Positions 2,441-19,009 of a stretch of 62,283 nt of DNA are shown here, piece after piece. Numbering within the stretch: the stretch's first letter is position 1; the number at the start of each line of letters is the position of its first letter. The notes beneath the pieces are model-generated. The model was not told the DNA's origin. It searched no databases and was given only the letters and a program-made list of their open reading frames with translations. Made by a program: the position numbers and the translations under genes. The stretch lies in the sequence record PZ793367.1; one strand, given 5' to 3'. This DNA is from a phage.

Positions 2441-3277
2441 ATGACCGCTACCATCAAACTCATCACCGAGCAGACCGCTAACCAACTCGTCGACGCTGTA
2501 AACCGTTCTCAGGCTGACGGCTGGTTCCCGGTCTGCGGCGTCGTGGTCTTCAACGCTCGCTATACTCAGTTAATGGTGCTGGATACTGACGACACGACAC
2601 CGCCAGCCTGCAATTACTTTATCGTAGATGCTGCCGATGACGTGTCGTTCACCCAGCGCGTCAATCAATTACTCGACCTCAATCCCGGCGCTGTTTGCCT
2701 GTCGCCCGTTCAGTATTTCCAGGCTCGCTACATTCAAGCCTACGGCGATGATAGTCACGGTCAAACTACTGGCGGCGCTGTGTTCCGTGCATCGTTCACG
2801 ACGACCAATCTCGTAGCCACGCAGTATGTTACAGCAGACAATACGCCGCAGGTGGTCACCTTCAATGCTCAGGCCATACCTAACGCGGCGCTGGGTACAC
2901 TCGACAACGCCACAGGTATATTCACAGCGGCGCGGCGCATTGTCGGTACTCTGGCTATAAGTTGTCAGGTGCGTCGGACTACTGGCGGCGCTGCGGCGGT
3001 AACGTGGGGATTTCAGGTGGAGACTTCACCGGACGGCATAACATGGACACCGACCGCCGGGAGTGCACGTTACATTAACCTTCGTGGTGCCGGGAATAAC
3101 AACGTTTTGCAGACAACCAACCTCACGGCAGCGGTGGATATTCCAGCAGGTACCCTTGTACGAATTACACAGATGACAGACACGTCATCGGCTAATGTAG
3201 GACTGGTAGCACTTCCAGCCATGTTAGGTGGCGCTACAGCCGCTGGTCTGGTGTTCTCGTTGATTACCACGCTGTGA
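2441..3277 (+). CDS. hypothetical virion protein (possible receptor-binding or adaptor protein)
   Basis: 278-aa ORF with GGAGG-like RBS, Thr/Ala/Gly-rich C-terminal half; precedes a tail-fibre gene. Confidence 0.4.
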   Translation: MTATIKLITEQTANQLVDAVNRSQADGWFPVCGVVVFNARYTQLMVLDTDDTTPPACNYFIVDAADDVSFTQRVNQLLDLNPGAVCLSPVQYFQARYIQAYGDDSHGQTTGGAVFRASFTTTNLVATQYVTADNTPQVVTFNAQAIPNAALGTLDNATGIFTAARRIVGTLAISCQVRRTTGGAAAVTWGFQVETSPDGITWTPTAGSARYINLRGAGNNNVLQTTNLTAAVDIPAGTLVRITQMTDTSSANVGLVALPAMLGGATAAGLVFSLITTL

Positions 3278-3318: not shown

Positions 3319-4767
3319 ATGGAACTAACAGTCGCTGGCGGCTACTTCATTCCCGGCAAGACGCCGCAAATTATCAATAAGGTTAATGAGTTAATCGCTC
3401 TCGGCTACGTTCCCTACGGTACCCCGACGTATAACGAGGCCAGCGGTTGGGTAAGTCAGCTAATGGTGCTGGGCTACGGCGGCAGCGCTACTGACTACAC
3501 TCTCACGACGGGTTATCTCGATAAGACTCCCTACTTCCCTAAGAAGCCGCCAGTTAACGGTAATTGGGTGTTGCTCGGCTCACTACTGGCGCGCTCCAAT
3601 AATTTCTACGTGCACGCATGGCTTGACGGCGTAGCCGCTGGCCCACTCATCAATATCGACACGGGTACCACTGGCACGCTACCAGTCAGCCGGGGCGGTA
3701 CAGGGGCAACCACGGAACTGGACGCACGCAACAATCTGGAGTTAGGCGCAGAGGATGACGTGACGTTTAACAGCGTTACCAGTCGCAAGCGCAATACCGG
3801 AACGTCAGCGTTCATTGCTCAGGGCATTGATGGCTACACTCCAGCATCCAGCTTTACAACGCAGATGTACGACACCGCAGGTACCACGTTGCTCGGTCAG
3901 GGCGAGTTCCGCGCCAACAATAACGGTACGCTGCAAATCATCAACCGCGATCCTGTAGGTTCAACGTCATACTTCTGGACCTTCGGACGCGACGGGACTA
4001 CTGAGTTTCCGGGACAAACAATTATTCCCGCAACTCCGGGTAAACCTTGCATCCTCAGGTCGGGCGCTCCGGTTCTCCAGTTTGAGGAAACCGATACTGG
4101 CAAGGTTTACACGATGGTTGCCGATGGTAGCGGTCTGCGTATCAATGCTAACAACACAAGCGGTCCGATCGTATGGGGTTATAGCGGAACAACATCTCGT
4201 CTACAATTACCTGGTATCGAGGGTAACATTCAGATGTATAGCGGCACCACAACCAGCCTCGGTGTAATCACTACTGGCGGCGGTACCACAGCGGTGGGTA
4301 CTCGCAACCAGTTTGAGGTGACCACTTCGGCGGGGTTCTATCTGGTGCGACGTAACACTCAGAACACCACCGGACAATATATTATCAACTTCCCTACGAG
4401 TGCAGGAACCCTGGCCCTCGCAGGTACGTCAGGTATCAATTTCAAACATGACATTATTGACGCCGATTTACTGGAAGCTGTGAACCGCATCGACGCGCTA
4501 CGCATGGTCAACTTTGTCTACAACGACGACGAGCAAAACCGCCAGCGCTTCGGGATTATCGCGGAAGAGGCGGAAACTATAGCTCCGCAGTACATTAAAC
4601 ATCGTGAAGAAATGTATGAATGCGACATTGACGAGAACGGATCATCCATCAACCAGAAGTTCCGCGACCGTCCGTTTGTTGACGTTAACCCCATCGTCAT
4701 GGATTTACTGGGCTACGTTAAGCACTTGTCGGCACGCGTGGCTGAACTGGAAGAGAAATTAAAGTGA
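3319..4767 (+). CDS. tail fibre/tailspike protein with C-terminal intramolecular chaperone (peptidase S74-like) domain
   Basis: Fibre motif LPVSRGGTGATTELDARNNLELG near N-terminus; C-terminal DALRMVNFVYNDDEQNRQRFGIIAEEAETIAPQYI resembles the auto-cleaving chaperone domain. Confidence 0.7.
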   Translation: MELTVAGGYFIPGKTPQIINKVNELIALGYVPYGTPTYNEASGWVSQLMVLGYGGSATDYTLTTGYLDKTPYFPKKPPVNGNWVLLGSLLARSNNFYVHAWLDGVAAGPLINIDTGTTGTLPVSRGGTGATTELDARNNLELGAEDDVTFNSVTSRKRNTGTSAFIAQGIDGYTPASSFTTQMYDTAGTTLLGQGEFRANNNGTLQIINRDPVGSTSYFWTFGRDGTTEFPGQTIIPATPGKPCILRSGAPVLQFEETDTGKVYTMVADGSGLRINANNTSGPIVWGYSGTTSRLQLPGIEGNIQMYSGTTTSLGVITTGGGTTAVGTRNQFEVTTSAGFYLVRRNTQNTTGQYIINFPTSAGTLALAGTSGINFKHDIIDADLLEAVNRIDALRMVNFVYNDDEQNRQRFGIIAEEAETIAPQYIKHREEMYECDIDENGSSINQKFRDRPFVDVNPIVMDLLGYVKHLSARVAELEEKLK

Positions 4768-4799
4768 TGTTATCATGCACTGATTAACGGAGGTGTACT

Positions 4800-4988
4800 A
4801 TGGCAGGACGTCAAGTTTCATACACTACCCGCAGCTTCACTGAAATCGTGAATCGCCTGGACCCGAAGCGACTATCTACCCCGGAAGCGGTATACGTGTT
4901 CGATAACGGAAAGGTGAAGAGCGAGCAGCCGACGCTACCGGGTCACGACTATCGTTGGCTTAAGGACATTGATAATGACAACAGTTAA
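4800..4988 (+). CDS. hypothetical protein
   Basis: 62-aa ORF with GGAGG RBS upstream of ATG. Confidence 0.4.
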   Translation: MAGRQVSYTTRSFTEIVNRLDPKRLSTPEAVYVFDNGKVKSEQPTLPGHDYRWLKDIDNDNS

Positions 4989-5343
4989 CCATGCAGTAAT
5001 TTACACGCGCGGTACAGGTAGCGACGCCATCGAGATTGCAAACTACGAACTGGCCTCCATCATCGGCGAGTGTCTGCACAACGCATACCCCGGCTACCTG
5101 TGGCGTGTAAACGCTGAGATTGAAGGCGGTATCGTTAACATCCTGTGTGGCGACGTGTCCTACGAGTCCGGCGCTACGTTGATGATTGCCGATCTGGAAG
5201 AACCTGTCGCGGCCAAAGCGCTGGTGCTCCGCGCTGGCGGTGAAATCCTGGAACGCGCCAGGCTGCATCGTGGACGTATGCGCGAGCATGAACTGGTGGA
5301 AGCTAAGCGCGACATTCGTGGTAACATCATTGGTTTAAACTGA
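4975..5343 (+). CDS. hypothetical protein
   Basis: ORF in late operon; ATG at 4975 with AAGGA RBS preferred over TTG at 4969. Confidence 0.5.
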   Translation: MTTVNHAVIYTRGTGSDAIEIANYELASIIGECLHNAYPGYLWRVNAEIEGGIVNILCGDVSYESGATLMIADLEEPVAAKALVLRAGGEILERARLHRGRMREHELVEAKRDIRGNIIGLN

Positions 5344-5353
5344 GGATTAAGAG

Positions 5354-7735
5354 ATGCCGAACGCACAAAAGGGGATTAGTGAGTCCCTCGTTGGTCGCGC
5401 GCCGGACACCCAGTCGCCTTACGGCGGCGGTGGTGCTCGCGGGATTACGCAGGTAAACGACGATCCGTACCGCGCTAACCAGATTATTCCGGGCGCTGAA
5501 CTGGACATCAACCAGGCATCCTTCGGTGAGATGGACTCATTCTCCCAGTTCGAGAAGGAAGGCGACACGCTGCAAGCCGAGGAACAGACCTACGACCAAC
5601 CGGACGACTCCGGCGTTGCTGGTATGTCTGAAACTGAGTGGGTAGACCTCGGTCGCCGTTGCTATGACACGGGCCGCACCTTCTACCGTCAGGGCTACCA
5701 GACGCAGCACATCAACGACACCTATCTGTTTAAAGGTCGCCACGAACCGGGCAGCAAGTATTACAGCGAAGCGTTCCGCAACCGCTCGAAAGTTTTCCGC
5801 CCGTTAACCCGCATGGCCTCCCGTAGCTGGGAAGCGGACATTGCAACCGCTCTGTTCCTGAACGATGACTACATGCACATCTCGCCACGCAACGTAACCG
5901 ATCAGGATGCGGATAAAGCGGCGGCAGTGCTGAAGGAAATCGTAAACCTTCGTCTGGATAAAATCTGGTACCCGATTTGTATCGGTGCGGCGCAGGACTC
6001 ATTCATCAATGGGCCAGCAATCGCTAAGGTTTTCTGGTGGCGTGAAACTACCGTTACCAAAACCGACATTCCGGTGCTGGATGAAATGGGTAACCTGGTC
6101 GGTCTGGAAACTACCGAGAACGAAATCGTCGTTCACGATGAGCCGTACATCGACCTGATCCTGCCGGAAAACTTTATCTTTGACCCGACCGCAAAAGCGA
6201 ACGATGTCATCGGTACTGGCAAGTATTTCATCCACAGAAAAATGATGTCTGTTGATGACGTCATGGTACGGATGGAACGCGGCGAGTGGAACATGCTGTC
6301 ACCGGGCGAAATCCTGACGTGTCGCTGGGCGATGGAAGACGACGCCACGCAGCAGGCAAAACGCGGTGAAGGTAAGCCGGACCCAATCAACAACGACAAC
6401 GCTGACACCCGTTACGAATCCGTGATGGTTAACGAAGTGTTCGTCCGCCGTGACGGTATCTGGTACACCTACCACATGATGGGTACCCAGTTCTTACTGG
6501 AAATGCCTGTGGAACTGAAGAACCGCTATCACCACGGTCGCCTGCCGTTCGTTTACGGTACCTGCATGATTGAGTCTCACAATAACGTGCCGGACTCAAA
6601 AGCCCACCTGGGTAGCGAGTTGCAGAAGGCAGTGAACGAAATCAGTAACCAGCGCGTGGACAACGTCAAGCTCGTACTGAACAAGCGTTATCTGGCGCGT
6701 CGCGGTGCATCTATCGACCTGGCCGCTCTGACACGCTCCACTCCGGGCGGCGTAATTTTCACCAGCGACCCGGCTGGCGACCTGATCCCGCAGGAAGTGA
6801 ACGACGTCACCAGTAGCAGCTATGAGGAAACTCAGCGCCTGACTATGGAGATGAACGAAGCGCAGGGTACCTTCAGCGGCCAGGCTGTAGCCAACAACCG
6901 CGAGATGAACGAAACCGTCGGTGGCATGAAGTTGCTGAGCAACGCCGCTACCAAAGTGAACGACTTCGACATCCGTACCTTCGTGTTCACCTTCGTGCGC
7001 CCGGTGCTGGAACTGTTCATGCTCACCGTTCAGTATTATGAGAACGACGAGACGATCATGCACATCGCCGTCGACAACTCGGCCTACTTCCCGCGCCTCA
7101 ACGTGGAAGACCTGACCGACGATCTCATGACTAAACAGCTTGAGATGAAAGTCGATACAGGTATTGGTGCAACTGATCCGGTACAGCGCGTAAACACCTT
7201 GATGTACGGTGTGACGACGGTAATGCAGTTACCCGGCATGGCTGACAACATGGATAGTAAAGCCGTCGGCAGCGCTATCTTCTCAACGCTCGGTCAGGGC
7301 GACGGTAGTAAATTCTTCCCGAATCTGGCGAAGAACTTCCAAGAGCCGCCTCCGTCTGAACCACCAGTTGATCCGCTGGTACAGGCTGCACAGGAAGAAG
7401 CGAAAGGTCGAGTGCAGGAAGCGCAGATTAAAGCTGAACTGGAACTCCAGAAGCAAGCCAACCAACTGGCCGCCGACCGCGAACTGAAGTTGATTCAGAT
7501 GGCGCTTGACGCAGAACTGGAAGGTAAGCGCGGTCAGCTTGATATGTTGCTGTCTATGCTGGATAATGAAACCCGGCTACGGATTGCCGAAGCACAGGAC
7601 AAGACCAAGCGTCAGACCACCGCACTCCAGCACGGAAGCTCATTGCAGCAGACGGCGATGCAGCAGGCCCAGCAAATCGGCCAGCAGGTAACGCCTACTC
7701 AGCAGGAAGTTATCAATGAGTCAAACGTCAAGTAA
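5354..7735 (+). CDS. portal protein
   Basis: 793-aa ORF at the position expected for a portal, between terminase and scaffold/capsid genes; C-terminal Gln/Ala-rich coiled segment. Confidence 0.7.
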   Translation: MPNAQKGISESLVGRAPDTQSPYGGGGARGITQVNDDPYRANQIIPGAELDINQASFGEMDSFSQFEKEGDTLQAEEQTYDQPDDSGVAGMSETEWVDLGRRCYDTGRTFYRQGYQTQHINDTYLFKGRHEPGSKYYSEAFRNRSKVFRPLTRMASRSWEADIATALFLNDDYMHISPRNVTDQDADKAAAVLKEIVNLRLDKIWYPICIGAAQDSFINGPAIAKVFWWRETTVTKTDIPVLDEMGNLVGLETTENEIVVHDEPYIDLILPENFIFDPTAKANDVIGTGKYFIHRKMMSVDDVMVRMERGEWNMLSPGEILTCRWAMEDDATQQAKRGEGKPDPINNDNADTRYESVMVNEVFVRRDGIWYTYHMMGTQFLLEMPVELKNRYHHGRLPFVYGTCMIESHNNVPDSKAHLGSELQKAVNEISNQRVDNVKLVLNKRYLARRGASIDLAALTRSTPGGVIFTSDPAGDLIPQEVNDVTSSSYEETQRLTMEMNEAQGTFSGQAVANNREMNETVGGMKLLSNAATKVNDFDIRTFVFTFVRPVLELFMLTVQYYENDETIMHIAVDNSAYFPRLNVEDLTDDLMTKQLEMKVDTGIGATDPVQRVNTLMYGVTTVMQLPGMADNMDSKAVGSAIFSTLGQGDGSKFFPNLAKNFQEPPPSEPPVDPLVQAAQEEAKGRVQEAQIKAELELQKQANQLAADRELKLIQMALDAELEGKRGQLDMLLSMLDNETRLRIAEAQDKTKRQTTALQHGSSLQQTAMQQAQQIGQQVTPTQQEVINESNVK

Positions 7736-11718: not shown

Positions 11719-12381
11719 ATGTCGAATACCCTGTTAGGAATGTCTCAACGAGTTGCCCGTGACGCAGGGTATTCCGGCAATATCCAGTCGGTAGCTGTGG
11801 TGTCCGGCGACGCTGCGCGCATTGTGCAGTATGTGAAGGACGCCACCACTTATATTGAAAACCTGTGGGGTGACTGGCGCTTCCTGTGGGGCGGTATGCT
11901 TGAAGGTATCGTCGATGTCGGAGAAACGTCAATCCCCGCACCACTCGGTCACTATCGCTGGGACCAGGCACGTCTTATGTTTGACAATCACCTGGTGTAC
12001 CCGGAACTGTTTCATAACTTCAGCCCGTACAGCACCATGCTGGAAAACGGGTACCCGACTCAGTTTGTCATTATGCCGGACTCATCCATCCAGATGTACC
12101 CGCGTCCTGACAAGCAATTCAACTTTCAATTTTCCTGGTACCGTGAGTCCGTAGAGTTGGTCAACGACTCCGACACTCCGCTGGTACCCGCGCGCTTCTG
12201 CAATACAATCGTGGCCTACGCGCTGTGGCTGTATGCAATGTACGATGACGCGGCGGAACTGGCGGCTAAGTCTCAGGCTGAATACGAAAAATACCTGCGC
12301 CTGCTTGAAGCTGACCAGCGTCCAGACGGTTACCCGACCAACCAGTCGTCCGGCAACTTCTTCTCTATCTCAGCGAGTTAA
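11719..12381 (+). CDS. virion structural protein (tail tube/adaptor-like, tentative)
   Basis: 220-aa ORF with AAGGAG RBS; size and position resemble podovirus tail tubular protein A. Confidence 0.35.
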   Translation: MSNTLLGMSQRVARDAGYSGNIQSVAVVSGDAARIVQYVKDATTYIENLWGDWRFLWGGMLEGIVDVGETSIPAPLGHYRWDQARLMFDNHLVYPELFHNFSPYSTMLENGYPTQFVIMPDSSIQMYPRPDKQFNFQFSWYRESVELVNDSDTPLVPARFCNTIVAYALWLYAMYDDAAELAAKSQAEYEKYLRLLEADQRPDGYPTNQSSGNFFSISAS

Positions 12382-12383
12382 TC

Positions 12384-13787
12384 ATGGCTAATTACGATCG
12401 CTTTGCACTGCAAGGTGGCCTCGACACGGCCACTCCTTATCTCAGCCGTCAACCTGGCACGTTGACAGCCACCACAAACTTCTCACCGGAGACTGACGGC
12501 GGCTATGCGCTGGAAGCAGGATACGAGCGCTTCGACGGTCAGCCAGCGCCGAGCGAGACTGTGGTGTACAGCCTCAACATGACGGATGACGTTACGGGCC
12601 TGCTTCCGGGCGACACAATCACTGGTTCAGTGTCCGGTGCTGTGGCGACGGTCGGTGCGATTTTCGGTAAGGAAATCTGGTGCGATGTCACCAACGGCAT
12701 CAACTTCATGCAGGGTGAGACTGTCAGCGGCAACACCATCGAGTATATCTCGACGGAAGCTATCGACCAGCGCAGCTATAACCCGAACGCCACGCGCACC
12801 ACCATTCTCAAGATGTTACCGCTGGCAGCTAATACGCTGGAAGTTGGCGACGCGTTGCTGGGCTTGTCTTCCGCTGCCACGGTTGCCGTCAACATTATCA
12901 AAGTCACCAACGCTGACATGTGGGTGTACGTATCCACGCTGGCTGGCGCGGTGCAGGTTGGCGAGACGATGGTGAAAGGTGACGGTACCGAGTACAAGGT
13001 TGACGGCGAGTATGAAGTGGAACCGATGCTGGCCTCCCCGGATACTCCCGCAGGTGTCTTCTTCTACCTGAGCGAATTGCGTCGCGCTAAGATTGGCGTG
13101 GTGCCTGGTATCAACAGTGTGCGTGGTGTATGGGATCTGGAAGGTGTCGTTTACTCGTTCCGTGACGCTGACGCCAACAGCACTAAAATGTACCGCAGTA
13201 CCACAACAGGCTGGCAGGAAGTCGACCTGGGCTTTACGATGGGATGGGATACGCGCCCGTCTACCACCACTGACGACGAACTCGGTCCGGGCGATGCAAT
13301 CCGTGGTGTGACGTCCGGCGCTACAGCGACTGTAGGCTGGGTAGGTTACATCGCTCAGGATCACTCGTCCGGCTACCTGACGTTCACCAATGTTACCGGA
13401 ACGTTCCAGGCTGGCGAAGTGATTCACAACGATACATATAACGTTGACATCGGTGAAGTGACAGCGGCGGCCACGCCTAACGTTCTCCCGGCTAACGGTC
13501 TGTACCGCTTCACCAACCACAACTTCTTCGGTGGTCTGAATACGTTCGCAATGTACGGCGTGAACGGTGTGAGCAACGGCTTCGTTTACAACGAGACGCA
13601 TGGCTTCTCCTTTATCCCGACGCAAGCCGACACGGATACCCCGTTCGACGTGGTGGAATACAAGGACCATCTGTTCTTCGCGTTCCCGAAAGGTAGCCTG
13701 CAACACAGCGTGCTGGGTAGCCCGATGGACTGGAGCGGTGGCCTCGGCGCACTGGCGGTCGGCGTAGGTTCCGAAATCTTTCGCTGA
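12384..13787 (+). CDS. virion structural protein with three internal GDxxxGxxSGAxATVG repeats (tail tube/nozzle-like, tentative)
   Basis: 467-aa ORF; repeats GDTITGSVSGAVATVG, GDALLGLSSAATVAV, GDAIRGVTSGATATVG. Confidence 0.35.
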   Translation: MANYDRFALQGGLDTATPYLSRQPGTLTATTNFSPETDGGYALEAGYERFDGQPAPSETVVYSLNMTDDVTGLLPGDTITGSVSGAVATVGAIFGKEIWCDVTNGINFMQGETVSGNTIEYISTEAIDQRSYNPNATRTTILKMLPLAANTLEVGDALLGLSSAATVAVNIIKVTNADMWVYVSTLAGAVQVGETMVKGDGTEYKVDGEYEVEPMLASPDTPAGVFFYLSELRRAKIGVVPGINSVRGVWDLEGVVYSFRDADANSTKMYRSTTTGWQEVDLGFTMGWDTRPSTTTDDELGPGDAIRGVTSGATATVGWVGYIAQDHSSGYLTFTNVTGTFQAGEVIHNDTYNVDIGEVTAAATPNVLPANGLYRFTNHNFFGGLNTFAMYGVNGVSNGFVYNETHGFSFIPTQADTDTPFDVVEYKDHLFFAFPKGSLQHSVLGSPMDWSGGLGALAVGVGSEIFR

Positions 13788-13912
13788 TTCCGGCACCAAA
13801 ATCGCTTATTATTTGTACAGAGAAAGACATCCAAAGTCTTGAGGGGAGCAGCATTGATGACTGGCAAAAAGAGGTTATTACTCAGCATACTGGTATCTCT
13901 AAATTTACTGGG

Positions 13913-14653
13913 GTGTACCAGTCTCAATCACTCGTACTCGCCCAGGCAGGCATCATTAGTATCGACCGGACTGACCAATTTGGTAACTTTAGCGACGGTA
14001 CTATCAGCGACGTCATCAGAGACACCATCGTACCTAACTATTCTCGCTGCACTTGCGCAATGGCAAGGAAGAGTCGAGGGCAGTACCGACTCCACTTTGA
14101 GGGAGACGTCAACATCGCCCTTTCCACTAATCAGGGGAATGTGATCGGCTTCTCGATGTTTGACTACGGCGGTCTGACGGTGCGTGCTGCGGTCAACCCG
14201 TACGGTCGTATCTTCTTCATCTCGGATACCGGATACGTCTATCAGGATTCCGTGGGGGCCAGTAACGATGGTGGTGAACGGTCATCAGTATTCCGTACAT
14301 CCTTCGCCAACCAGGGTGACCCGGATACCCGTAAGCGGTACCGCCGTATGGACATGAGTATCCGCGCGCAATCTTACCTTAACGCGCGTGTCGTTTTCTC
14401 GTACAATAAAGGCGCATCCACTCCGCAGGCATCGGTCGAATCTGGCCTGTTAGTGTCCGGCGGCGGTCGCTGGGATTTGTCGCTGTGGGGGCAGGTCTAC
14501 TGGGATGCCACGGAAAACCCGACAATCTCATCTGATATTGACGGCTTAGGTTTCGACATCAGCACGATGCTGTACATCCGGTCACGAATCCATCCGCAGT
14601 TTACCGCAGAGGATTTATCATTCGAATGGTCACCACGTAGAAAGGTACGATAA
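13913..14653 (+). CDS. virion structural protein, start codon uncertain
   Basis: 246-aa ORF beginning at GTG with no RBS; frame is open from 13721; see finding on candidate -1 frameshift. Confidence 0.5.
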   Translation: MYQSQSLVLAQAGIISIDRTDQFGNFSDGTISDVIRDTIVPNYSRCTCAMARKSRGQYRLHFEGDVNIALSTNQGNVIGFSMFDYGGLTVRAAVNPYGRIFFISDTGYVYQDSVGASNDGGERSSVFRTSFANQGDPDTRKRYRRMDMSIRAQSYLNARVVFSYNKGASTPQASVESGLLVSGGGRWDLSLWGQVYWDATENPTISSDIDGLGFDISTMLYIRSRIHPQFTAEDLSFEWSPRRKVR

Positions 14654-16278
14654 TGGCTAACACTTATTTCAACTACATGGACCCGGTGGAACCGGGCGAC
14701 CGTCTGGAGTCAACAAAATACAACGGCGACTTCTCCGCGATTGCCCGTGCTTTCGACATCCTGCCGTCTCCAGATGCGCTGGCCTCCAACACCGGAAACT
14801 ATGCCCGGTCACAAGGTACATCTACGGCGTACACTGTAACCCTGCCGCGCTTCGATGGTAGCTTCGGTTACATCACTGGTATGCAGGTGTTGCTCAACAT
14901 TCACGTTAACAACACCGGGGCGGCCACGCTCAACATTAACGGACTCGGCCCTAAGCCACTCGTCAACCTGACTACCGCGCTCGGCCCACTGGTGGCTAAC
15001 GATCTGCGTGCAGGCACCATCTATTCCATCCGTTATGACGGTACCCGTTTCCAGGTAGTCAACACTGTTTCCGGTGCGGTAAACGCATCGCAGACCGCAG
15101 CTACCCAGGCAACTACCGCCGCCACAAACGCTGGTACATCCGCCACAAACGCAGCCAATAGTGCCAGCGCCGCAGCGACAAGCGCGAGTAATGCAGCCAG
15201 CAGCGCCAGCGCCGCAGCTTCCGGTGTTACTGCCGCCGCAAACTCTGCCAGCGCCGCATCGACGTCTGCAACCAATGCAGCAAACTCTGCGTCTGCGGCA
15301 AACACATCTGCGGGTAACGCTGCCAGCAGCGCCACGGCAGCATCCGGCAGCGCCACGGCAGCGGCAAACTCCGCTACGGCAGCGGCAGGTAGCGCCAGCA
15401 CGGCTAACACCCGCGCCACGGCAGCGGCAGCAAGTGCTACAGCAGCGGCAAACTCTGCGACTCAGGCAGCGGCCAGTGCTCAGACTGCGCTCGACGCTAT
15501 CGGTGACGCATCGTTCAAAGCGGCGGTGATGGGTGTCCTGTTAACCAGCACGCTGGACGTGGGGACCGTCAAGTTCTATGCGCTGAATATTGATCCGAAC
15601 ACCAAATATCCCGGTACCACCTGGGTACGCCTCCCGGTATCGCAAAGCATCCGTACATCCCTGGCCGACGCAAGTGACGTCATGACCACTGTAGGTGCCG
15701 ACTCGGTAACGCTGGCTGTAGCCAACATCCCGTCGCACAACCACACCGCTACCGTCACCATCAATAACACGGACTTGGGTACTAAGGCGTCAACCAGCTT
15801 TGACTACGGTACTAAAACGTCGAGCGCTCACAACTATGGCACGATCACGATGTCCAGTACGGACCTCGGTACCAAAACTACCAACAGCTATGATTACGGC
15901 GCTGTCACCTCGTCGTCCGCTGGTGCACATACTCACACAGTACCGGTGTACACCGCCCTCGGTACAGCCAACACAATAAAGTCAGCATCCACAGGTAGTT
16001 CAAGTTCAGGTAACGCCGCAACGTCGTCCGCTGGTGCGCATACTCACACGTTCGACCTTCCGTCGCATAACCACACGGTTGCAATCGGTAGTCACAGTCA
16101 CACGATGAACCTGGGTACTCACTCCCACACCGTAGCGGTAGGTAGCCATAGTCACAGCGTGGTCGTAGGGAGTCACACCCACACAACCACAATGACGCTG
16201 GGTAATACCGGTACTGGTCAGGCTTTCAGCATCGTGGCAAAATCTACTATCCTTGTCGGCTGGAGACGTACCGCATGA
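14653..16278 (+). CDS. tail fibre protein 1
   Basis: Ala/Ser-rich collagen-like repeats (NSASAAATSASNAASSASAAAS...), C-terminal His-x-His repeats (SHNHTVAIGSHSHTMNLGTHSHTVAVGSHSHS). Confidence 0.8.
   Translation: MANTYFNYMDPVEPGDRLESTKYNGDFSAIARAFDILPSPDALASNTGNYARSQGTSTAYTVTLPRFDGSFGYITGMQVLLNIHVNNTGAATLNINGLGPKPLVNLTTALGPLVANDLRAGTIYSIRYDGTRFQVVNTVSGAVNASQTAATQATTAATNAGTSATNAANSASAAATSASNAASSASAAASGVTAAANSASAASTSATNAANSASAANTSAGNAASSATAASGSATAAANSATAAAGSASTANTRATAAAASATAAANSATQAAASAQTALDAIGDASFKAAVMGVLLTSTLDVGTVKFYALNIDPNTKYPGTTWVRLPVSQSIRTSLADASDVMTTVGADSVTLAVANIPSHNHTATVTINNTDLGTKASTSFDYGTKTSSAHNYGTITMSSTDLGTKTTNSYDYGAVTSSSAGAHTHTVPVYTALGTANTIKSASTGSSSSGNAATSSAGAHTHTFDLPSHNHTVAIGSHSHTMNLGTHSHTVAVGSHSHSVVVGSHTHTTTMTLGNTGTGQAFSIVAKSTILVGWRRTA
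15100..15470 (+). repeat. in-frame Ala/Ser-rich coding tandem repeats within tail fibre 1
   Basis: Periodic GCx-rich units encoding AANSASAA-type repeats. Confidence 0.6.
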
Positions 16279-17891
16279 GTAACCAATATTACAACTTTAT
16301 CAATCCGGCTGAAGCGGGTACGATTGTCGACCCGTTCGACTACAACCGTGAGATGGAAAAGATCACCGAGGCTTTCTCGGTGGTCCCGCCTGCTTCCCAG
16401 TTAACTTCCGGTACCCTGAACTACTCAACGGATACGGGTACCGGGAACGATCACATCGCCACGCTGGATGACTTTGATACCGACTATGTTGCTGGGAGTA
16501 ACGTTGCACTCCGAATCAATGACGCTTCTACTGGACCGTCTACCCTGAGTGTAAACGGGCTGGCCGCTAAAGACGTCACGCTGTCAGTGTTCGGCGCGGT
16601 GGCGGCAGGTGACCTGTTTGCTGAAGGCGTCTACACGTTCGTATTCAACGGTGAGCGTTTCCAGATTCTGGAGATGGGCGCACGCTATTACACGACAGCC
16701 TTCGAACAGCTTTCGATCGCTCAGGCTAAAGCAGCACTCGCGGCGGCCAGTGAAGCTACGGCACTGAGTGAGCGTAACGCAGCAGCAGCGTCGGCGGCAA
16801 ACGCCCTCGCGTCAGCAAACGCTATTACCGCGTCCAAAAATGCAGCGGCGGGTAGCGCCACGTCAGCGGCGGGTAGCGCCACGTCAGCAGCAAACTCAGC
16901 AACGTCAGCGGCGGGTAGCGCTACGTCAGCAGCAAACTCAGCAACGGCAGCGGCAGGTAGCGCTACGGCAGCGGCGAACTCTGCGACGGCAGCGGCGAAC
17001 TCTGCTACGGCTTCCGACGCCAGCGCAACGGCGGCGGCAAACTCCGCAACGGCGGCGGCAGGTAGCGCGGCGGACGCAGCAACTTACGCGCAGGAAGCTA
17101 TCGACATCGTTAACGCGCCGAACTTTCTCGACCGCGTGCAGGCGGCTGTTCTCGAACTGGAATTGTTCGTCGGTTCCACCGAGTTCTTTGACGCTAACAT
17201 TGATCCGAACGTTAAATATCCGGGTACCACATGGGTGCGTCTACCAGCGTCCACGACTATCCGTATGTCCAACGCAACGGGCACCGACGTGCTGGCCGCA
17301 ACAGGTAGCGACAATGTAGCTTTGACTGTCAGCACCCTACCATCACATAGTCACGCTGTCACAGCGGGTACAGTCAGTTCTACAGACCTCGGTACCGACA
17401 CGCTGGCATCTGTCGACCTCGGTACCGACACGCTGGCTAATTTTACCGACACGGCCAAAACGTCATCCAGTACGGACCTCGGTACCAAAACTACCAGCAG
17501 TTATGATCCTGGTGCAATAGCAACCAACTCCACGGGTGCACACACTCACACAGTCACTCCGTATGCTGCGGAAGGAAGCAACGCGCTTATTAAATCTTCA
17601 GATTTAGGTGCCGTGAAAGCGGGCGACTACACAACATCCTCATCAGGTGCACACACGCACAGCGTCAACCTGGGTGCACACACGCACACTGTAGCGATAG
17701 GTAGTCACAACCACACGTACGCGCTGGGGTCACATACTCATACCGTGGCGCTGGGGTCACATACTCACAACGTTGCTCTCGGTAGTCACAACCACAGCAC
17801 GTCAACATCCGTGACGTCGGTTGGTTCCGGTACGGCGTTCTCCGTGGTAGAATCGTCTCTAATCTTAGTCGCATGGTACAGGAGCGCATAA
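16275..17891 (+). CDS. tail fibre protein 2 (paralogue of fibre 1)
   Basis: Shares N-terminus (YFNYMDP vs YYNFINP), Ala/Ser repeats, HxH repeats and C-terminal LILVxWYR motif with the upstream fibre. Confidence 0.8.
   Translation: MSNQYYNFINPAEAGTIVDPFDYNREMEKITEAFSVVPPASQLTSGTLNYSTDTGTGNDHIATLDDFDTDYVAGSNVALRINDASTGPSTLSVNGLAAKDVTLSVFGAVAAGDLFAEGVYTFVFNGERFQILEMGARYYTTAFEQLSIAQAKAALAAASEATALSERNAAAASAANALASANAITASKNAAAGSATSAAGSATSAANSATSAAGSATSAANSATAAAGSATAAANSATAAANSATASDASATAAANSATAAAGSAADAATYAQEAIDIVNAPNFLDRVQAAVLELELFVGSTEFFDANIDPNVKYPGTTWVRLPASTTIRMSNATGTDVLAATGSDNVALTVSTLPSHSHAVTAGTVSSTDLGTDTLASVDLGTDTLANFTDTAKTSSSTDLGTKTTSSYDPGAIATNSTGAHTHTVTPYAAEGSNALIKSSDLGAVKAGDYTTSSSGAHTHSVNLGAHTHTVAIGSHNHTYALGSHTHTVALGSHTHNVALGSHNHSTSTSVTSVGSGTAFSVVESSLILVAWYRSA
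16770..17060 (+). repeat. in-frame 21/42-bp coding tandem repeats within tail fibre 2
   Basis: gcggcgggtagcgccacgtcagc units repeated, encoding AAGSATSAANSATSAAGSATAAANSAT. Confidence 0.65.
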
Positions 17892-19009
17892 TGTCAGGAT
17901 TAACTAACCCGGCACAGTCGGATAGCACCACTACTAACCAGCCGGATCAGGTGCTCGCTACGAGCACCCCTTCGTCCACGTCCGGTGCGCTGGGTGCGAG
18001 TAATATTCAGAACGACGCGTCGCAGCAGTCGAGCGTGGCCTCGTCAATGGCACAGGCGGCACAACCGCAACAGCAGCAACAGCAGGCTGTACCCGTTGCG
18101 TCACAGCCAGCACCGCAGCAGGTGACCAATGGTGCCGTGGCAAACAACAATAACGCCAACGCCGCCAATAACTACCAGACTGTGGACCAGGCGTACAGCC
18201 AGTTGACCGCACAGAATAGCCCGATGATGCAGCAGGCAGCAGCTACGGCCCAGCGTCAGGCAGCACGTCGCGGTATGGGTAACTCGTCTATGGCTGTCGG
18301 TATGGGTCAGGCGGCCACGGATGCTGCCGCTCAAAACATGGCGTCGCAGATGGCTACCCAGTCGCAGAGTCAGGCCCAGTACAACCGCAGTCAGACGGAA
18401 GCCGAGCGCGCCCAGCAGATTAAGGAAAGTCAGACTGACCGCCAGTTGACGGAAGCCGAACGTGCCGCCCTGGTGCAAGAATCACAAGGTCAACAGCAAA
18501 TCACCAACCAGGCGTCACAGTTCGCACAGTCGCTGGAAGAACAGATTCGTTCCGGTAAGGTGAGTGAAGCGCAGGCCCAGCAGCAGATCAACAACCAGGC
18601 GTCACAGTTCAGCCAAAGCCTGGCCGAGCAAATCCGCTCCGGTAAAGTGAGCGAAGCACAGGCAGCCGAGCAGATTAAGAATCAGGCAGCGCAGTTTAAA
18701 GACTCCCTGAAGCAACAGCAGTTTGAGTTCAATGCCAACCTCGGTCTGGAGAACGCCAAGCTGAAGCAGGACGCCGCGCAGTTCGCAACGTCTATTCAGG
18801 CTAACGCCCGTGGCAGCTATACGGACTCGGTGAACAACCTGTTAAACAACAGTTCGGTGAACATCAACAATATTTCTTCCAACCCGGATTTGACCACGGA
18901 CCAGAAGAACAAGCTGATCTCGCAGGAACTGAGCAACCGTAACAATGACCTGAAGTATTTGCAGTCACTTTATGGTAACGTTACATCCTGGTCCGACAAA
19001 CTGAAATAA
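17891..19009 (+). CDS. Gln-rich virion/internal protein with about 90-bp tandem repeats
   Basis: ATG at 17891 with AGGAG RBS (TAATG overlap); repeats QQITNQASQFAQSLEEQIRSGKVSEAQA x2.5 at 18491-18718. Confidence 0.5.
   Translation: MSGLTNPAQSDSTTTNQPDQVLATSTPSSTSGALGASNIQNDASQQSSVASSMAQAAQPQQQQQQAVPVASQPAPQQVTNGAVANNNNANAANNYQTVDQAYSQLTAQNSPMMQQAAATAQRQAARRGMGNSSMAVGMGQAATDAAAQNMASQMATQSQSQAQYNRSQTEAERAQQIKESQTDRQLTEAERAALVQESQGQQQITNQASQFAQSLEEQIRSGKVSEAQAQQQINNQASQFSQSLAEQIRSGKVSEAQAAEQIKNQAAQFKDSLKQQQFEFNANLGLENAKLKQDAAQFATSIQANARGSYTDSVNNLLNNSSVNINNISSNPDLTTDQKNKLISQELSNRNNDLKYLQSLYGNVTSWSDKLK

Follow-up and report, generated by a model that had tools for sequence, protein, structure and literature searches.

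Twin tail fibre genes and their modules

The window, a phage DNA of 62,283 nucleotides (nt) under the sequence record PZ793367.1, carries two adjacent and almost equally long tail fibre genes with repetitive centres, which raises the question of what such twin fibres are built of, which part of them varies, and whether they would work as two fibres or as one. Both genes lie on the plus strand and were named F1 (14653-16278; an open reading frame (ORF) of 541 amino acids (aa), orthologue of PTXU04 gp17 and Pondi_00085) and F2 (16275-17891; an ORF of 538 aa, orthologue of PTXU04 gp18 and Pondi_00084). Each was found to be built of three modules, namely an N-terminal beta bead, a 146-residue rod, and a C-terminal module of the T4 gp37 type. 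It is considered probable, though well short of certain, that the pair makes two separate fibres with gp37-type tips in an Escherichia coli podovirus of the Xuquatrovirus type.

The window showed 93% identity to Escherichia phage PTXU04 (genus Xuquatrovirus) across its first 17.5 kb, and 85.8% nt identity over the first 88% of the F1/F2 region. Gene order was identical to that of PTXU04 and Pondi, the N-terminal domains were 97-100% identical, and there were 0 indels in F1 or F2 among the three phages, with lengths of 541 and 538 aa alike. The published annotation names the pair 'long-tail fiber protein' and 'stf' in Pondi, and both are hypothetical in PTXU04. Both proteins matched PHROG tail-fibre families (best E-values 4e-35 for F1 and 3e-26 for F2), which supports the tail fibre assignment made in a first-pass annotation of the window. 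That annotation had also described twin adjacent ORFs with shared ends; both are present on the same strand at 14653-17891, and the paralogy extends over the whole length, with 34% identity in the N-terminal domains (BLASTP E 7e-26), 51% in the rods and 51% in the C-terminal 267 aa (E 3e-81). F1 and F2 overlap by ATGA. The junctions from the upstream gene through F1 and F2 to the downstream gene read TAATG, ATGA and TAATG, so that all four genes are translationally coupled.

For comparison, 21 close metagenome proteins were obtained by protein search (13 F1-type and 8 F2-type), and ten genomes with complete F1/F2 pairs were assembled from fetched contigs, giving 20 aligned sequences; this complete-pair set was built without the contig of protein P0004 and without three contigs that end inside F2.

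C-terminal module and its homology to T4 gp37

In F1 the C-terminal module begins with the N-terminal part of a collar (aa 284-361, 15502-15735, plus strand as for all segments given here), which contains NIDPNTKYPGTTWVRLP. The ascending strand of a needle follows (aa 362-428, 15736-15936) and carries the first two histidine-any residue-histidine (HxH) motifs and two TDLGTK..(F/Y)DYG units, aligned to the T4 gp37 receptor-binding tip (PDB 2XGF). After the tip loop, the descending strand (aa 463-512, 16039-16188) carries six HxH motifs at 9-residue spacing and aligns with T4 gp37 GNHSHT...GAHTHTVAIGSHGHT, and a C-terminal strand (aa 513-541, 16189-16275) that ends in FSIVAKSTILVGWRRTA is predicted to return to the collar. 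The same order was found in F2, with the N-terminal part of the collar and the ascending needle, including HxH motifs 1 and 2, at aa 280-425 (17112-17549), and the descending needle with six HxH motifs plus the C-terminal strand at aa 460-538 (17652-17888).

The tip structure 2XGF was the one solved structure significantly matched by both proteins in a single-sequence PDB search (phmmer E 4.1e-11 for F1 and 1.4e-10 for F2), and a profile of 23 homologues matched it at E 5.8e-17, with profile positions 388-499 against chain residues 103-223. In T4 gp37 and the Bas63 fibres, a collar, a needle and a head follow one another, the chain turns back on itself once it reaches the head, and iron is held at the HxH motifs (PMC12609058; the description of 2XGF is drawn from this source and PMC6563267). 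Eight HxH motifs were located in each window protein, at 362, 426 and then 463 to 508 by nines in F1, and at 358, 423 and then 460 to 505 in F2. The step from motif 2 to motif 3 is 37 residues and is followed by five steps of 9 in both, so that the histidines recur with a period of 9. Five of the eight align with HxH motifs of T4. An SSTDLGTKTT(S/N)S(F/Y)DYG-type peptide is also common to the F1 ascending needle and T4 gp37.

The motifs were strongly conserved. All eight HxH pairs were invariant in 14 F1-type sequences; in the 23 F1 and F2 sequences seven of the eight were invariant, H499/H501 was at least 90% conserved, and W537 and R539 were invariant. Of the 27 long-form proteins, 25 had eight motifs and two (P0018 and P0020) had seven, and within each of the ten complete-pair genomes both paralogues carried an equal number. 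The first-pass annotation had reported GSHxH repeats in both proteins of the kind found in long tail fibre tips. This was borne out by the eight motifs in each, the last six exactly 9 residues apart, and by the profile match to the iron-coordinating needle of T4 gp37. By analogy with T4, the motifs would bind metal and the module would be trimeric.

The collar is suggested to be formed from both ends of the module's chain. The shorter twin proteins Bas95_0020 and Bas95_0021 consist of an N-terminal domain, a short alanine linker, the start of the collar (…FFDPTLDPNLSYPGTTW…) and the C-terminal strand (…GWRRTA), with the needle absent; in Bas95_0020 the tail KGWRRTA comes directly after the collar. 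The AlphaFold2 model of the C-terminal module likewise had a high predicted local distance difference test score (pLDDT) at both ends, reaching 87 for the last strand. These two observations would fit a two-ended collar in the predicted fold.

Two smaller repeats were observed in the needle DNA. A stretch of 42 nt (15853-15894 in F1, 17466-17507 in F2) was 95% identical between the two genes, against about 50-60% paralogous nt identity around it, and encodes SSTDLGTKTT(N/S)SYD, with a near-identical peptide in T4 gp37; either a short tract of conversion or strong constraint on the motif could be the cause. F2 also has an exact direct repeat of 23 nt (17385-17407 and 17415-17437), which encodes DLGTDTLA twice.

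Tip loop and exchange of distal modules

Between HxH motifs 2 and 3 lies a hypervariable loop, predicted to contact the receptor, at aa 429-462 in F1 (15937-16038, plus strand) and aa 426-459 in F2 (17550-17651, plus strand). Both loops align with the 2XGF stretch between GEHSHY and GNHSHT, which would correspond to the T4 head domain. Identity between orthologues was lowest in the tip (25% for F1 and 22% for F2) and highest in the N-terminal domain (72% for F1). The 34-residue loop is most likely the part that sets specificity. The first-pass annotation had placed the specificity determinant in variable central segments; this was the wrong place, as the central rod is constant in length and is not the receptor-binding part, and the hypervariable segment is the loop in the C-terminal module.

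Compared with PTXU04, the F1 tip was 53% identical in aa and 55% in nt, with a ratio of nonsynonymous to synonymous divergence (dN/dS) of 0.41, and the F2 tip was 44% and 48% identical to that of gp18. Synonymous divergence (dS) between the window and PTXU04 was 0.11-0.18 in the N-terminal domains, 0.33-0.46 in the rods and 1.3-2.8 (saturated) in the needle and tip of both fibres. As the distal dS is about tenfold above that of the N-terminal domains, the distal modules were recombined in and did not merely evolve faster in place; the whole distal module was swapped in both fibres. Exchange of this kind was seen in a metagenomic protein, P0015, in which a distal module of the window's F2 type (97-100% identity; tip 97%) stands on a rod of the PTXU04 type (96%). 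Among the relatives the window's F2 tip recurred only in this protein, and the search for a donor of the window's distal modules gave no isolated phage closer than PTXU04 and Pondi, at 67-71% nt identity.

Compared with each other, the two tips of the window were 44% identical, with a proportion of synonymous differences (pS) of 0.75 (saturated); they are distinct alleles of old origin. Two receptor specificities from the two tips are plausible on the same grounds. The identity of partner tips was 74% in one metagenomic lineage (L008), 56% in PTXU04 and 9-26% in most lineages. Recent gene conversion between F1 and F2 was considered as a cause of their likeness and was rejected, because pS in the window is 0.53-0.75 and saturated in every region; a modest dip of pS at the tip (about 0.5) was present in PTXU04, Pondi and L008 only. 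The idea that both tips co-vary in every phage was also set aside, as it holds for L008, PTXU04 and Pondi but fails for lineages L005 and L010-L014.

The 34-residue loop and the swappable distal module are candidate sites for engineering or predicting host range. What is new here is distal-module alleles on known kinds of fibre module, in an ordinary host-recognition device; no new principle is involved, as gp37-like iron needles, coiled-coil shafts and paired fibres are already known. The result is a domain-level account of the two main candidate receptor-binding proteins in Xuquatrovirus-type coliphages, a group whose biology was called largely enigmatic in a survey (PMC11990801).

The repetitive rod and the constancy of its length

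The F1 rod (aa 138-283, 15064-15501, plus strand) consists of about 20 heptads of Ala, Ser, Thr and Asn written in 21/42-nt DNA repeats and is predicted to form a trimeric coiled coil. The F2 rod (aa 134-279, 16674-17111, plus strand) has the same 146 residues, aligns with that of F1 without gaps and carries the strongest DNA repeat. These protein-level heptad regions are wider than the stretches of 15100-15470 and 16770-17060 first assigned to the repeats. Tandem Repeats Finder placed arrays with periods of 21, 42 and 63 nt at 15150-15473 and 16843-17060, the best being a 42-nt unit in 3.3 copies with 90% matches (score 213) in F2 at 16860-16997. Two repeat families, D1 and D2, were found in the rods, D1 covering the 42-nt array of F2. 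DNA self-identity was 0.50-0.51 at a shift of 21 nt, against 0.36-0.40 at an in-frame shift of 24 nt and 0.19 at 20 nt, so that the repeat exceeds what the bias of alanine codons would give. The DNA-level tandem repeats reported for both genes in the first-pass annotation were thus confirmed.

At the protein level the 21-nt period equals seven residues. Alanine was invariant or at least 90% conserved at every 7th residue from A153 to A279 in 14 F1-type proteins, with a second set of alanines at +4, and the pattern was unchanged when F2-type proteins joined the alignment (23 sequences). Alanine occupancy of the two heptad registers was 0.90 and 0.86 in F1 and 71-86% in F2, and the Fourier power of alanine in the window rods was 2.9-5.3 at a period of 3.5 and 0.03-0.10 at a period of 3. 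Glycine made up 4.1% of the rod and proline 0. In the monomer AlphaFold2 model, F1 residues 140-284 formed a single continuous helix (pLDDT 60-79). The family profile matched the T7 gp17 shaft at residues 160-263 (E 3.9e-6), with part of the score given by biased composition; single sequences reached only E 0.08-0.2. Given the alanine heptads, the 3.5-residue peak, the lack of proline and the modelled helix, the rod is best described as a predicted alanine-core heptad coiled coil with alanine at positions a and d. A collagen-like rod, as first proposed, was ruled out by the composition, by the lack of a Gly-X-Y or period-3 signal against the 3.5/7-residue alanine periodicity, and by the predicted helix.

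Three ORFs of 122-183 aa run over the rods in alternative frames or antisense (15033-15419 on the minus strand; 15161-15529 and 16768-17319 on the plus strand). These ORFs arise from the GCN-rich heptad repeats and are not plausible as genes.

The repeats had also been expected to be prone to slippage and length variation, and this did not hold. A search for rods of differing copy number covered the 3 isolates and 21 relatives from metagenomes (to about 40% identity) and gave none, with 0 indels in the 3 isolates. The rod block was gapless at 146 residues in 20 of 20 paired sequences of both paralogues, at identities down to 32-50%. The distance from the end of the N-terminal domain to the PGTTW collar motif was 184 aa in 25 of 27 long-form proteins and 186 aa in the other two, in which the two additional residues fall outside the rod (the 27 are those with both landmarks located; the pattern failed in one more, P0021). 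Copy number was therefore invariant across isolates, an outcome that the first-pass annotation had itself named as speaking against this part of its proposal. In the same set of genomes the neighbouring Gln-rich gene ranged between 295 and 437 aa, so a variation of fibre length would have shown in them.

The repeat units themselves are not static. Exact runs of 16-47 nt at shifts of 21 or 42 nt occurred in every isolate examined, at positions that differed by isolate; as the best repeat sits elsewhere in each, the units have been turned over with the length unchanged. The rods are a natural example of slippage-capable repetitive DNA kept at constant length, which argues that fibre length is functionally constrained. 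Taken as a whole, the first-pass observation stood for the ORFs, their paralogy, the DNA repeats and the HxH motifs and fell for the collagen-like character and the variable central segments; its interpretation kept the tail fibres and the metal-needle homology and lost the collagen analogy and the slippage prediction to a helix and gapless rods.

N-terminal domain and conservation of the pair

The N-terminal attachment domain of F1 (aa 1-137, 14653-15063, plus strand) is a beta-rich 'bead', and that of F2 (aa 1-133, 16275-16673, plus strand) is a distinct paralogous type with indels relative to it. AlphaFold2 gave a confident beta domain at F1 aa 50-138 (pLDDT 75-87), and this domain matched gp47, a tail fibre of phage Pa193 (9b45_2), by Foldseek (E 2e-5, 32% identity over 104 columns) and by hmmsearch (E 3.2e-8, profile positions 42-140 against gp47 residues 239-336). 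By tblastn the domain was matched in 341 phage records, of which 298 belong to Pseudomonas phages. Vibrio relatives also have it, and in these a single annotated fibre gene follows the gene in the nozzle position.

F1-type and F2-type N-terminal domains formed separate ortholog groups in 10 of 10 genomes, and the two genes were adjacent in all ten complete-pair genomes and also in Bas95 and L006. On this distribution the pair appears to be old. Bas95 (L003, 16328-17631) and L006 (an IMG/VR contig, 4001-5523) encode stub twins, of 219 and 215 aa and of 229 and about 277 aa respectively, which retain both N-terminal domains without the long rod and the HxH needle; Bas95_0020 was 56% identical to the F1 domain and Bas95_0021 44% identical to that of F2. 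Bas95 is O-antigen-dependent (PMC11990801), and its receptor-binding protein is presumably a different fibre. A scan of IMG/VR with the family alignment gave 3 loci, one of them PTXU04.

Likeness to known fibre systems

In their distal part F1 and F2 have in common with T4 gp37 the needle and tip homology, the repeated HxH motifs and the SSTDLGTKTTSSFDYG peptide. T4 gp37 has seven HxH motifs whereas F1 and F2 have eight, with six against four on the descending strand, and the TDLGTK..DYG unit is doubled on the ascending strand of F1 and F2. T4 gp37 is the end of a four-protein fibre of a myovirus, whereas the F1 module is part of a single 541-aa fibre of a podovirus. T4 gp37 and T7 gp17 are homotrimeric. 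No chaperone of the gp38 or Tfa type was found among the 13 neighbouring ORFs scanned.

For the whole C-terminal module, the closest relatives in isolated phages were tail fibres of Felixounavirus (30-36% identity). Bas63, a member of that genus, likewise has a paralogous pair, the long fibre gp27 and the short fibre gp26, with gp37-like HxH tips and N-terminal attachment domains (PMC12609058). Bas63 is however a myovirus with baseplate fibres of unequal length (430 against 630 A), whereas the window belongs to a podovirus with equal fibres and an Ala-rich coiled-coil shaft. T7 gp17 also has an Ala/Ser/Asn-rich heptad segment after its N-terminal tail-binding part, but the rod is longer here (146 aa) and the N- and C-terminal domains are unrelated. 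In gp47 of the Pseudomonas phage Pa193 (Pbunavirus), which is a trimer of beta beads docked on the baseplate by its N-terminal bead, a homologous beta bead is followed by a helical segment as in F1; the matched part is bead III (239-336) and not the docking bead I, and the remainder of the 962-aa protein is unrelated.

The portal and adaptor resemble those of the kuravirus SU10. The portal (5354-7735) matched PF23899 SU10_portal (E 5.6e-34), and the adaptor (11719-12381), two genes upstream of F1, matched PF24175 SU10_adaptor (E 2.3e-11); at the level of these protein families the Xuquatrovirus head-to-tail connector is linked to Kuravirus, although the genomes are without nucleotide similarity. 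SU10 bears six long fibres (gp12/13) on the adaptor gp11 and six short fibres (gp16) on the nozzle gp17, which act sequentially (PMC9509320). Like the window, this podovirus encodes two fibre sets beside its adaptor and nozzle genes, but its fibres are unequal and not paralogues of each other, whereas F1 and F2 are equal paralogues.

Proposed architecture and alternative explanations

On the preferred reading of two separate fibres, each fibre would most likely be a homotrimer docked on the tail by its N-terminal bead of about 135 aa, from which the 146-residue alanine-core rod would extend for about 21 nm if fully helical. The chain would then leave the collar, climb the beta needle, make a small variable tip and descend back to the collar. 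Each chain has eight HxH motifs, so that as many as eight octahedral metal sites (occupied by Fe2+ in T4) could lie on the needle axis, where they would hold the trimer together; receptor recognition would not be their role. The two N-terminal domain types may occupy separate docking sites on an SU10-like tail, with six fibres each, by analogy with SU10 and Bas63. The phage would in this way present two distinct tips for binding to two surface structures, and F1 would matter more on B-type hosts. A CRISPRi-ART screen of PTXU04 on BL21 rated gp17 as Fit and gp18 as Semi-fit (PMC11879866 supplement). Host range would shift by recombinational swap of the whole distal module and not by repeat slippage, and selection would keep the rod length constant.

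Several points weigh against this architecture. The full-length monomer AlphaFold2 model had a mean pLDDT of 58.7 with 35-50 in the needle, and that of the C-terminal module (monomer, 66-sequence alignment) a mean of 68.2 with 46-80 in the needle; in a Foldseek search of the PDB the latter gave no match at E <= 0.001, and the weak matches include long beta-hairpin pore toxins, a result that does not count as a negative, the expected fold being an intertwined trimer. SU10 gp12, gp13, gp16 and gp17 were not among the PDB sequence matches of F1, F2, the family profile or intact PTXU04 gp16, which makes the model of two docking sites one of analogy only. Polar effects may have contributed to the CRISPRi-ART phenotypes, since gp16 to gp19 are translationally coupled. 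Peptide mass fingerprinting of PTXU04 virions assigned four bands, none of them to gp17 or gp18. Elsewhere the window encodes a third fibre, which has a Peptidase_S74 domain and may be the primary receptor-binding protein. Finally, identical rod lengths are not obviously required in two independent fibres.

The alternative that survives best is possible but doubtful. It holds that the two sets act in sequence on one host, as in SU10, an adaptor-docked set binding first and reversibly and a nozzle-docked set then helping to trigger tail opening. The SU10-type adaptor and portal of the window and the sequential action of the SU10 fibre sets (PMC9509320) agree with it, as does the fact that both PTXU04 genes add to fitness on a single host, and the retention of the pair even as needle-less stubs in Bas95 and L006 suggests a structural role for both N-terminal domains. 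The equal length and the same gp37-type tip of F1 and F2 are nevertheless unlike the long and short fibres of SU10, and sequence similarity to SU10 gp12, gp13, gp16 and gp17 is lacking.

The matched geometry of F1 and F2 could also point to physical coupling, given the gapless 146-residue rod, the HxH motifs in the same register, and the finding that both proteins of a lineage are either long or stubby. Coupling would mean either F1/F2 heterotrimers with composite tips or fibres lying side by side, with the rod as a strict ruler, and is regarded as quite improbable. We know of no heterotrimeric gp37-type fibre. Co-assembly of F1 and F2 into one heterotrimeric fibre (2:1 or 1:2) with a composite tip, in which the lengths are forced to match, is taken to be very improbable. 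It would explain why both paralogues have the same rod in 10 of 10 genomes, why F1 and F2 of the window have eight HxH motifs each at identical spacing, why total lengths within a genome differ by just 1-5 residues, and why both are long or both are stubs; the ATGA overlap would favour coupled synthesis, and the tips are unusually similar in L008 and PTXU04. Against this, partner N-terminal domains are about 33% identical with 6-12 gap positions, in L005, L010 and L013 the partners have tips and ascending needles that are unequal by 2-3 residues, and partner tips are as little as 9-26% identical in most lineages. The knock-downs of gp17 and gp18 fall in different fitness classes, Pa193 gp47 and the BASEL fibres are described as homotrimers or trimers, and the long and short tail fibres of Bas63 are two separate fibres (PMC12609058).

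The weakest alternative, a collagen-like, slippage-prone Ala/Ser contingency tract whose copy number alters fibre length, is extremely unlikely: its DNA repeats are real, slippage substrates are present in every isolate examined and the most perfect repeat changes place between isolates, but the rod is a glycine-poor, proline-free predicted helix without a Gly-X-Y pattern, its length is constant in the window, PTXU04, Pondi and the metagenomic relatives for both paralogues, and the Gln-rich neighbour varies in the same genomes, where such variation would be visible.

Neighbouring genes

The gene upstream of F1 (12384-14653) is a homologue of PTXU04 gp16 (756 aa), in the nozzle or 'head-closure' position. 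In the window one base is missing near 13779 in comparison with PTXU04 (AAATCT-TTCGC against AAATCTCTTCAC), which breaks the gene into two ORFs of 467 and 246 aa. The homologue was intact at 756-765 aa in all metagenomic relatives fetched, and the break is either a sequencing or assembly error or the mark of a defective genome. PTXU04 gp16 was scored Fit in CRISPRi-ART, and a PDB sequence search with the nozzle-position protein (intact PTXU04 gp16) gave no match.

Two fibre-like genes near the terminase (2441-3277 and 3319-4767) are homologues of PTXU04 gp03 and gp04, so that the phage has at least three candidate receptor-binding proteins. The product of 3319-4767 carries a C-terminal Peptidase_S74 intramolecular chaperone domain (E 3e-8).

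Downstream of F2, the Gln-rich gene (17891-19009) is a homologue of PTXU04 gp19, which was strongly Fit. Although the ORF listing begins it at 17873, the gene has its conserved start at the ATG of 17891, in overlap with the stop codon of F2. This gene contains an 87-nt tandem repeat at 18494-18663, in 2 copies with 81% matches.

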